Source of the DNA: Escherichia coli
Lineage (GTDB): Bacteria; Pseudomonadota; Gammaproteobacteria; Enterobacterales; Enterobacteriaceae
Strand: one strand, 5' to 3'
DNA: 64,000 bases
Assembly (NCBI RefSeq): GCF_003334405.1
Contig: NZ_QOWM01000003.1
Part shown: piece by piece, positions 10,623 through 12,828 of the stretch
Position numbering within the stretch: position 1 is the stretch's first letter
Layout of the letters: each line of letters starts with the position of its first letter
Program-made: the position numbers and the translations under genes
Notes under the pieces: model-generated
Told to the model about the DNA's origin: nothing
Databases searched by the model: none
The model's input: only the letters and a program-made list of their open reading frames with translations

Positions 10623-11204
10623 TTATGCAGCGAGATTTTTCGCTACGAATTCCCAGTTCACCAGCGCCCAGAAGTGCTCCAGATAGCCAGGACGTGCATT
10701 GCGATAGTCGATGTAATAAGCGTGTTCCCAGACATCAACGGTCAGCAGCGGAGTCGCATCGGTGGTCAGCGGAGTACCCGCGTTAGAGGTTGAAACGATA
10801 GCCAGTTTGCCATCGCTGTTTTTCACCAGCCAGGTCCAGCCAGAACCAAAGTTTTTGATCGCTGCATCAGTAAACTGCGCTTTGAAATCGGCAAAGCTGC
10901 CAAAAGATGCGGCGATAGCTTCAGCGACTTTTCCAGTCGGTTCGCCACCGGCGTTCGGTGCCAGGCAGTTCCAGTAGAAAGTATGGTTCCAGACCTGAGC
11001 TGCGTTGTTGAATACGCCACCTTCAGAGCTGCGAATAATCTCTTCCAGTGATTTACCTTCAAACGCGGTACCTTTAATCAGGTTGTTCAGGTTAGTGACA
11101 TAAGTCTGATGGTGCTTGCCGTAGTGATACTCGATGGTTTCCGCAGAAATGTGCGGTGCCAGAGCATCTTTAGCATATGGTAGTGCAGGTAATTCGAATG
11201 ACAT
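10623..11204 (-). CDS. sodB: Iron superoxide dismutase, 193 aa
   Basis: [36 protein letters not shown]... with the D-x-W-E-H-A-Y-Y motif. Confidence 0.98.
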
Positions 11205-11331
11205 TGCTACTCTCCTTTATTATTAATTTGCATACGTACAATAGCCTTATTGTGCGTATGGATAGGGTAGCAAATTAAAAGGTGAGACAAAAGATGAACT
11301 TACCCTGTTGCCGTAACAACAGGGTAAAGTT

Positions 11332-12147
11332 TTAGCGAAGTGTTTTTGGGGTCATTACCCGACGAGCGCCAACATAGTGGCGCTGCCAGTAGTCTTCACT
11401 GAGAGAAGTGATTTGAATTTCCTGACCTGTGCGCGGTGACTGAATAAATTTGCCGTTGCCGACATACACGCCGACATGATCGGCTGTGCCGCGTCCCTGA
11501 GTACGGAAAAAGACCAGGTCGCCGTTTTTCAGTTCACTACGTTCGATTGGCGCTGCATCACGCAGGTGATACATTTCATTCGCCGTACGCGGAATACGAA
11601 TTTTCACCAAATCTTTATAAGCGTAATAAACCAGGCCGCTGCAATCAAAACCGGTACGCGGTGAGCTGCCACCCCAACGATATGGCTTACCAATTTGCTG
11701 CATCAGTTTATTCATTGCCACTTTCGTAGCTTTTTGCACCTTCGCTTTGTGCGCGTCGGCAAGAGTTCCTGACGCGGCATTTTTGACTTTCACACAATGC
11801 GATTTATAGCCCTTACGTTTGGTACACTTTTCGGTAAAGCTGGCTGAGGCCGTTTTATTGACGGCGTGTTTGCTGCGAGTTTTGGCGTTTTTAGAAGCGG
11901 TAATGGAAGATTTTTTAACGGAAGAAGCGGTTTTGCTTTTGGTCGTACTTTTACTGGCGGCTTTTTTCGCTGGTTTCTGGGTCTTTTTGGTGGTTGCCGT
12001 GCTTTTCTTTTTATCTGCTTTTTTGGTGATATGAGTGGTAGCAGAACTCTCCCTGGCTTGCTTTGAAGCATGGGCCATAGGCGTTAAAGGCAGGGTGGTA
12101 AAAAGTAAAGCACAGAGCGTGATCGAAATACGGTTTATCCGCGCCAC
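11332..12147 (-). CDS. mepH: NlpC/P60 peptidoglycan DD-endopeptidase (MepH/YdhO), 271 aa, with a Lys/Thr/Ser-rich low-complexity region
   Basis: Signal peptide, then the K/T/S-rich segment (KKADKKKSTATTKKTQKPAKKAASKSTTKSK...), then a C-terminal NlpC/P60 domain with catalytic Cys (FDCSGLVYYAY). Confidence 0.92.
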   Translation of the reverse strand: MARINRISITLCALLFTTLPLTPMAHASKQARESSATTHITKKADKKKSTATTKKTQKPAKKAASKSTTKSKTASSVKKSSITASKNAKTRSKHAVNKTASASFTEKCTKRKGYKSHCVKVKNAASGTLADAHKAKVQKATKVAMNKLMQQIGKPYRWGGSSPRTGFDCSGLVYYAYKDLVKIRIPRTANEMYHLRDAAPIERSELKNGDLVFFRTQGRGTADHVGVYVGNGKFIQSPRTGQEIQITSLSEDYWQRHYVGARRVMTPKTLR

Positions 12148-12480
12148 TGAGCGTCCCTCTGTTAAGGCAGGTCTATCATGCCTGCGTCTGATTTACAAAA
12201 CTTGATGATTCTAATGCATAGAAGAAGAGAAAGTTAATAGCTTTTATTGTTAAAAAATACGTTTCGTTGGCGAGCGCAAAAAAATGCAGCAGTGAAAGCT
12301 AAAAATGGTTATAAATACGCCAGTTTGCCGGCATCAGAGAAGAAACGAATATTTGAAATGCAACAAATAGAGCAAAGGGATAAAATAGCAAAAGCGTGAT
12401 GAAAATGTTATTTTCCGATGCCGCACTGACCCGCTACAATGTCAGATTACTGCCGTAAAGAAGTTTGAGGAAGCAAGACA

Positions 12481-12828
12481 ATGAGCACCACTATCGAAAA
12501 AATCCAACGCCAGATTGCTGAAAACCCGATCCTGCTGTACATGAAAGGTTCACCGAAACTGCCGAGCTGCGGTTTCTCTGCCCAGGCAGTCCAGGCGCTT
12601 GCCGCATGTGGCGAACGTTTTGCCTATGTTGATATTCTGCAGAATCCGGACATTCGTGCGGAACTGCCGAAATATGCTAACTGGCCGACCTTCCCGCAAC
12701 TGTGGGTTGACGGCGAGCTGGTCGGCGGTTGTGATATCGTGATCGAAATGTATCAGCGTGGCGAACTGCAGCAGCTGATCAAAGAAACTGCCGCTAAATA
12801 CAAGTCTGAAGAGCCGGACGCGGAATAA
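12481..12828 (+). CDS. grxD: Monothiol glutaredoxin Grx4, 115 aa
   Basis: CGFS active-site motif (KLPSCGFSAQAV) in a full-length ORF. Confidence 0.97.
   Translation: MSTTIEKIQRQIAENPILLYMKGSPKLPSCGFSAQAVQALAACGERFAYVDILQNPDIRAELPKYANWPTFPQLWVDGELVGGCDIVIEMYQRGELQQLIKETAAKYKSEEPDAE

Follow-up and report, generated by a model that had tools for sequence, protein, structure and literature searches.

Why does the peptidoglycan endopeptidase MepH carry a long low-complexity segment rich in Lys, Thr, Ser, and Ala ahead of its catalytic domain, and what could such a segment do in the cell envelope? We analyzed the E. coli mepH (ydhO) gene within a 64-kb stretch of DNA (64,000 nucleotides in full, hereafter the window), where the coding sequence occupies positions 11332..12147 on the minus strand, as placed by the ORF list and by RefSeq identity, with a GTG start and 271 codons followed by a stop. 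MepH belongs to a trio of "space-maker" endopeptidases of E. coli that are redundantly essential (PMC11211486; 10.1101/2021.02.12.430937), and the MepH literature examined is concerned with its genetics, its substrate specificity, and its NlpI-Prc-dependent degradation (PMC8996183, 10.1101/2021.02.12.430937, PMC10671308, PMC11789061). The positioning and restraint of MepH activity are only partly understood.

The identification of the gene as mepH, already made in the first-pass annotation, is secure. It is supported by a best match of 99.9% nucleotide identity to the RefSeq gene annotated as peptidoglycan DD-endopeptidase MepH (megablast), by an NlpC/P60 domain at residues 153-263, and by its neighbors, the monothiol glutaredoxin ORF grxD (12481-12828, plus strand) and the Fe-superoxide dismutase ORF sodB (10623-11204, minus strand), which stand in the same order, grxD-mepH-sodB, in the five RefSeq records inspected. 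The ORF was matched by megablast in all 5,426 of 5,426 complete E. coli genomes, and every match was annotated mepH; a gene identical to that of the window was absent among these genomes, the best match being 99.9%. The exact protein is listed as MepH in the public collection, and its sole difference from the K-12 reference, MEPH_ECOLI, is T59P (position 11973..11973, minus-strand gene, where the plus strand has G and K-12 has T in the DNA and protein alignments). This exact protein (P0270) occurs on seven public contigs, and T59P, which falls within the low-complexity tract, is a rare natural allele. No MepH-specific NCBIfam model was returned; the top match was the MepS equivalog, whose score of 86 bits falls short of its cut-off of 186.

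The flanks of the gene contain a few further elements. A terminator-like hairpin with a T-run was placed just 3' of the mepH stop as a pattern match from a consensus scan (11299..11328, minus strand, 13-pair stem). An Rfam scan of positions 11100-12600 gave no match within or beside the low-complexity tract. A weak, below-threshold match to the SodB 5' UTR thermometer was returned upstream of sodB (11175-11279, minus strand; 31 bits, where the gathering score is 98; E = 0.0017). Within the 333 nt that separate grxD and mepH lies a 50-codon ORF (12247-12399, plus strand), which is unannotated in the RefSeq records inspected.

We found that the N-terminal part of the protein divides into a signal peptide, a polycationic tail, and a short ordered element. 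The signal peptide covers residues 1-27 (12067..12147, minus strand) and reads as MARINR followed by a hydrophobic core and A-H-A directly before S28; A27 is conserved in 99% and S28 in 100% of 82 sequences, comprising the window protein and 81 orthologues. Judged by the lipobox rule, it contains no lipobox, the only Cys of the signal peptide lying in I-T-L-C with Leu at -1. From the -3/-1 rule, we infer cleavage between A27 and S28. The first-pass annotation had called the following tract a linker between signal peptide and catalytic domain, a label that fits the precursor only: because a lipobox is lacking and the A-x-A site is conserved, mature MepH should start at S28, and cleavage after A-H-A would leave the tract as a free N-terminal tail.

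The tail spans residues 28-103 (11839..12066, minus strand) as delimited by composition, model confidence, and sequence identity, or residues 28-107 if counted to the first Cys (about 11827-12066). In the longer form, 79% of its residues are K, T, S, or A, and 21 Lys and 2 Arg set against 1 Asp and 2 Glu give a net charge of +20. The compositional bias reported earlier is thus real, but the length of about 90 residues then proposed comes down to 76-80, as the interval on which it was based (11790..12075, residues 25-120) also takes in the end of the signal peptide (three residues) and the greater part of a C-x9-C hairpin; even so, those 96 residues are 74% K/T/S/A, compared to 28% in the other 151 residues. 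The 25-residue windows of the low-complexity core hold 0-3 hydrophobic residues each, and only four, scattered along the chain, occur in residues 28-103 (I40, V77, I82, and V96). Shannon entropy falls to 2.2 bits in the tract, as compared to 3.4-3.9 in the remaining protein. The bias exceeds what chance would give: among the 20,357 80-residue windows drawn from every stop-free stretch of 100 aa or more in the 64 kb, the tract is the lowest-entropy segment that is not a tandem repeat and the most positively charged segment in a real frame. Tandem Repeats Finder returned 0 rows for the tract at a minimum score of 30, so the tract reflects compositional bias and not a repeat array; its only repeat is one imperfect duplication of 11-12 nt, located at the indel site described below.

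The earlier suggestion that the tract is disordered was borne out by structure prediction. An AlphaFold2 model built on a 114-sequence alignment (mean pLDDT 79.4, pTM 0.61) gave pLDDT values of 48-60 for residues 28-103, as compared to 93-98 for the catalytic region 153-271, and DSSP assigned no secondary structure in residues 1-103, so that an ordered fold is not predicted for the tract. This model, drawn from 114 diverse sequences, replaced one based on 55 close orthologues, which was poor throughout (mean pLDDT 49.5). A charge-hydropathy plot places the tail well inside the disordered region (H = 0.359; boundary at 0.503); this plot discriminates poorly, the catalytic domain itself being marginally "disordered", and only the large margin of the tail is meaningful. 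With its biased, low-entropy composition, its lack of predicted ordered structure, and its fast evolution in sequence and length, the tail belongs with disordered low-complexity regions.

Order begins directly downstream of the tail. Residues 104-122 (11782..11838, minus strand) form a conserved element that AlphaFold2 predicts as a beta-hairpin with a C-x9-C motif, its strands lying at 104-109 and 117-122 with pLDDT of 79-88. In the orthologue alignment, C108 and C118 are invariant, and K107, T109, R111, K112, G113, and K115 are conserved in at least 90% of the sequences; the C-x9-C loop measures 11 residues in 101 of 106 sequences, and the distance from it to the catalytic domain is also almost fixed. 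Located between the tail and helix alpha-1, this hairpin is probably a disulfide-stapled element. Helix alpha-1 (residues 129-149; 11701..11763, minus strand; AlphaFold2 pLDDT about 95) precedes the catalytic domain, and alignments to solved MepS structures start at MepH residues 145-148. The catalytic domain itself covers residues 153-263 (11359..11691, minus strand) and matches Pfam PF00877 with E = 2.3e-36; its catalytic Cys and His, C169 and H224, are conserved in at least 90% of 114 diverse sequences, and its fold is predicted with pLDDT of 93-98, placing MepH in the NlpC/P60 (C40) family. Pfam detected no peptidoglycan-binding domain (LysM, SPOR, SH3b, or PG_binding) in MepH, only NlpC_P60 being significant, and the matches over residues 10-118 were weak low-complexity matches (E >= 0.015).

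The tract also overlaps three further ORFs, one of 93 aa in the +1 frame of mepH (11790..12071, minus strand) and two antisense ORFs of 71 aa (11819..12034, plus strand) and 66 aa (11866..12066, plus strand), which had been put down as spurious at first sight; all three are present in the ORF list, and our results agree that they are not genes. Their case as overlapping genes would rest on their size of 66-93 codons, on the presence of start codons, and on public annotations that give the 93-aa frame as the N-terminal part of a "putative exported hydrolase". However, in 2,000 codon shuffles of the 80 codons of the tract, the +1 sense frame contained 0 stops every time, and two antisense frames had means of 0.9 and 2.0 stops per 240 nt, as compared to 1.5-5.7 stops per frame for control sets of 80 random codons from the rest of mepH. 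The overlapping ORFs therefore follow from the codon set of the tract, which fully accounts for their openness. In the RefSeq records inspected, no feature other than mepH is annotated at the tract. The codon shuffles effectively exclude these ORFs as genes, and we see virtually no chance that any one of them is a real overlapping gene.

The "putative exported hydrolase" call arises only in assemblies that carry a frameshift in a run of six A residues at codons 78-79 (11911..11916, minus strand; from the run list), a hot spot that reads A7 in some public assemblies. With the +1 shift from A6 to A7, gene callers fuse the 93-aa frame to the catalytic half of MepH and give the product that name. 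The A7 form (cluster P0029, 101 member sequences) is otherwise identical to K-12 (loci L008 and L010); its protein is indexed in 39 blocks of the public collection, of which 24 contigs were examined, and it may come from a true pseudogene lineage or from a sequencing error at the homopolymer. These observations have practical value for annotation, in that the tract yields false overlapping ORFs and its A-runs give rise, through frameshifts or homopolymer sequencing errors, to mis-called "exported hydrolase" genes.

The length of the tract was expected to vary, and this held both within E. coli, which has two common alleles of 271 and 275 aa, and among Enterobacteriaceae, where 80 orthologues showed 20 lengths. 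In an evenly spaced sample of the megablast ranking, mepH matches were 816 or 828 nt long. The 275-aa allele has four extra residues, QKAS, after T56, and its additional 12 nt form an imperfect direct repeat, CCAGAAAGCCAG adjoining CCAGAAAACAG. The window carries the short form, in which the DNA and protein alignments show the remaining copy, CCAGAAACCAG, at 11970..11980 (minus strand); the extra QKAS copy would fall between 11980 and 11981. We counted the alleles by identity bands of a 200-nt long-allele query extending into normal sequence. Identity of at least 95% was found in 1,879 genomes, one of them with a truncated gene, leaving about 1,878 with 275 aa, and identity of 90-95%, corresponding to the 12-nt gap of the 271-aa allele, was found in 3,545. 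Roughly 65% of the 5,426 complete E. coli genomes therefore encode 271 aa and roughly 35% encode 275 aa, the short allele being the form of the window, K-12, and O157:H7. As E. albertii and Citrobacter proteins have residues equivalent to QKAS, the 271-aa form is probably a derived deletion, judging from these alignments.

Comparison of the indel state with the flanking synonymous SNP haplotype revealed all four combinations among six alleles (L001-L005 and the window at 11970-11981). K-12-like sequence occurs with both indel states, and so does the background resembling E2348/69 and NCTC11151, an incongruence that points to recurrent slippage at the CCAGAAA repeat or to intragenic recombination. 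Across the same six alleles, the tail contains five amino-acid-changing polymorphic codons and one synonymous one, as compared to one amino-acid-changing and 13 synonymous in the rest of mepH. Rare E. coli alleles that lack 9-61 residues of the tract are also present in the protein database, all in single-member clusters, and the junctions of these deletions show 1-9 nt of microhomology.

Two complete genomes carry 5'-truncated mepH pseudogenes (L006 in strain ST2747 and L007 in strain TUM2805), and in TUM2805 only the last 116 nt of the gene are left, adjoining grxD. Elsewhere in the window, at 37487-37912, a 96-nt tandem repeat (4.4 copies, 89% matches) lies inside a 708-aa ORF (37441..39567, minus strand) and encodes a 32-residue unit toward the C-terminus of an RnfC/RsxC-like iron-sulfur protein. 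This is likely another length-variable coding repeat; K-12 RsxC is presumably 740 aa long, one 32-residue unit more than the ORF of the window.

Between species, the sequence of the tail drifts and its bulk properties stay nearly constant. In the 80 full-length Enterobacteriaceae orthologues, the 20 tail lengths, counted from the cleavage site up to the first Cys, range from 67 to 99 residues, with a median of 82. When the orthologues are aligned to the window protein, identity averages 42% over the tail, 92% over the catalytic domain, and 80% over the signal peptide; residues 37-97 account for nearly all of the gaps. The net charge of the tail in the 80 orthologues is +15 to +23 (sd 1.7), with a charge density of 0.244 +/- 0.018 per residue, which varies only about 7%; acidic residues number 1-5, and the first 10 mature residues have a net charge of -1 to +2. 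A few islands are conserved, with S28 invariant and Q30, K42, K47, and K48 shared by at least 90%. In orthologues of only 45-60% identity the tails are beyond alignment, yet the N-terminal regions are again basic, with net charges of +19 to +35. None of the 80 species-level orthologues examined has lost the tail, the minimum being 67 residues. By these comparisons, selection appears to act on the composition and rough length of the tail and not on its sequence. We hold with high confidence that it is a disordered, almost hydrophobic-free polycationic tail, drifting in sequence and length and constant in its bulk properties.

The role of the tail is a matter of more tentative argument. We found no study of the N-terminal region of MepH in the literature, and no binding, localization, or deletion work on the tail. 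In the mechanism that we propose, exported MepH would lose its signal peptide and, carrying no lipid anchor, would display the tail with a free N-terminal end; the tail would then serve as a non-specific electrostatic tether to envelope polyanions, chiefly the carboxylate-rich peptidoglycan sacculus, so that the catalytic domain would be concentrated or kept at its substrate. The sequence and length of the tail drift freely, by slippage at short repeats and by deletion between microhomologies. Like peptidoglycan, other polymers of the periplasm are anionic. It is worth mentioning that Sec export is intolerant of positive charge just after the cleavage site, a sensitivity with which the neutral first mature residues fit. 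The Pfam result counts for the tether as well, as MepH has no known peptidoglycan-binding domain that could serve instead. That the tail tethers MepH electrostatically to the anionic sacculus or envelope seems possible from its composition, at somewhat less than an even chance, and the two statements taken jointly, a disordered polycationic tail and electrostatic tethering, stand at about an even chance. Rare natural alleles lacking 9-61 residues of the tract, together with the dispensability of mepH, suggest that the contribution of the tail may be small. A comparison of tail charge between 10 lipoprotein and 59 non-lipoprotein NlpC/P60 representatives, under a crude classification, brought out no difference (p = 0.47).

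Much of the variation described above would also be expected if the tail had no specific function and were a tolerated expansion or inert spacer, kept A- and Lys-rich by slippage and mutational bias. Weak sequence conservation and frequent indels fit such a spacer, as do the two common length alleles and the four indel/haplotype combinations, with the recurrent slippage or recombination that they suggest, the rare natural deletions with short junction microhomology, the frameshift alleles, and the excess of amino-acid-changing polymorphism in the tail. The basic composition could, moreover, come partly from mutational bias, the coding strand being 42% A. However, a spacer without function does not account for the retention of the tail in all the species-level orthologues, for the narrow range of its charge density and acidic content, for the neutrality of its first ten residues, for the islands at Q30, K42, K47, and K48, or for the persistence of basic tails in orthologues too distant for alignment, and we consider this explanation unlikely. 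The strongest rival to tethering, which we take to be less probable still, is that the tail would act as the NlpI-Prc recognition element for MepH degradation, by analogy with the disordered MepS N-terminus that docks on NlpI. Prc and NlpI destabilize MepH in vivo (PMC8996183; PMC10671308), and the intrinsically disordered N-terminus of MepS binds NlpI and folds upon binding (PMC11211486); in MepH, too, a disordered region precedes the homologous helix alpha-1. Yet the binding determinants of MepS are hydrophobic (L24, F31, L34, V35, and V38) and extend alpha-1 (PMC11211486), whereas the four hydrophobic residues of MepH 28-103 form no cluster, the windows within residues 41-85 holding 0-2 per 25. 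The positional equivalent of the MepS segment is MepH residues 119-135, outside the low-complexity tract, and direct NlpI-MepH binding is not described in the passages of the literature examined.

An extension of the tethering proposal would make the tail a charge-selected module, a non-covalent anchor that replaces the lipid anchor and tether of the MepS type and sets both local activity and exposure to NlpI-Prc, with the 271- and 275-aa alleles and the rarer deletions tuning it. From the sequence comparisons at hand, we regard this broader version as rather doubtful, if not quite as improbable as the inert spacer. If true, a charge-based targeting or regulatory module would add a simple way of keeping a potentially lytic enzyme in check.

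The tract is an ordinary feature of the already characterized MepH, and a basic, disordered, low-complexity N-terminus is familiar in kind; the details added here, namely the allele frequencies, the repeat at the indel site, the conservation of charge density, and the neutral first decapeptide, are minor. The closest comparison is MepS (Spr), a paralogous E. coli NlpC/P60 DD-endopeptidase and NlpI-Prc substrate, which also has a disordered stretch before the homologous helix alpha-1. MepS, however, is an outer-membrane lipoprotein, and its disordered region of roughly 36-44 residues is a true tether; this region is not polycationic and binds NlpI via hydrophobic residues, whereas the MepH tail has 76-80 residues, a net charge of +20, and no lipobox. 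In composition, the tail resembles histone H1-like tails and bacterial histone-like proteins, which are K/A/S/T-rich, disordered, and highly basic. Lysine-rich low-complexity regions are thought to bind polyanions non-specifically by charge (PMC6821194). The histone-like proteins are cytoplasmic and bind DNA, whereas MepH is exported and its candidate polyanions are peptidoglycan, anionic phospholipids, and periplasmic glucans.

In LpoB, RcsF, TonB, and TolA, long flexible low-complexity periplasmic segments set the reach or position of the protein relative to the sacculus. TonB and TolA are mentioned in PMC6821194. All four have one end anchored in a membrane and joined through the segment to a folded domain, whereas the N-terminal end of the MepH tail is predicted to be free.
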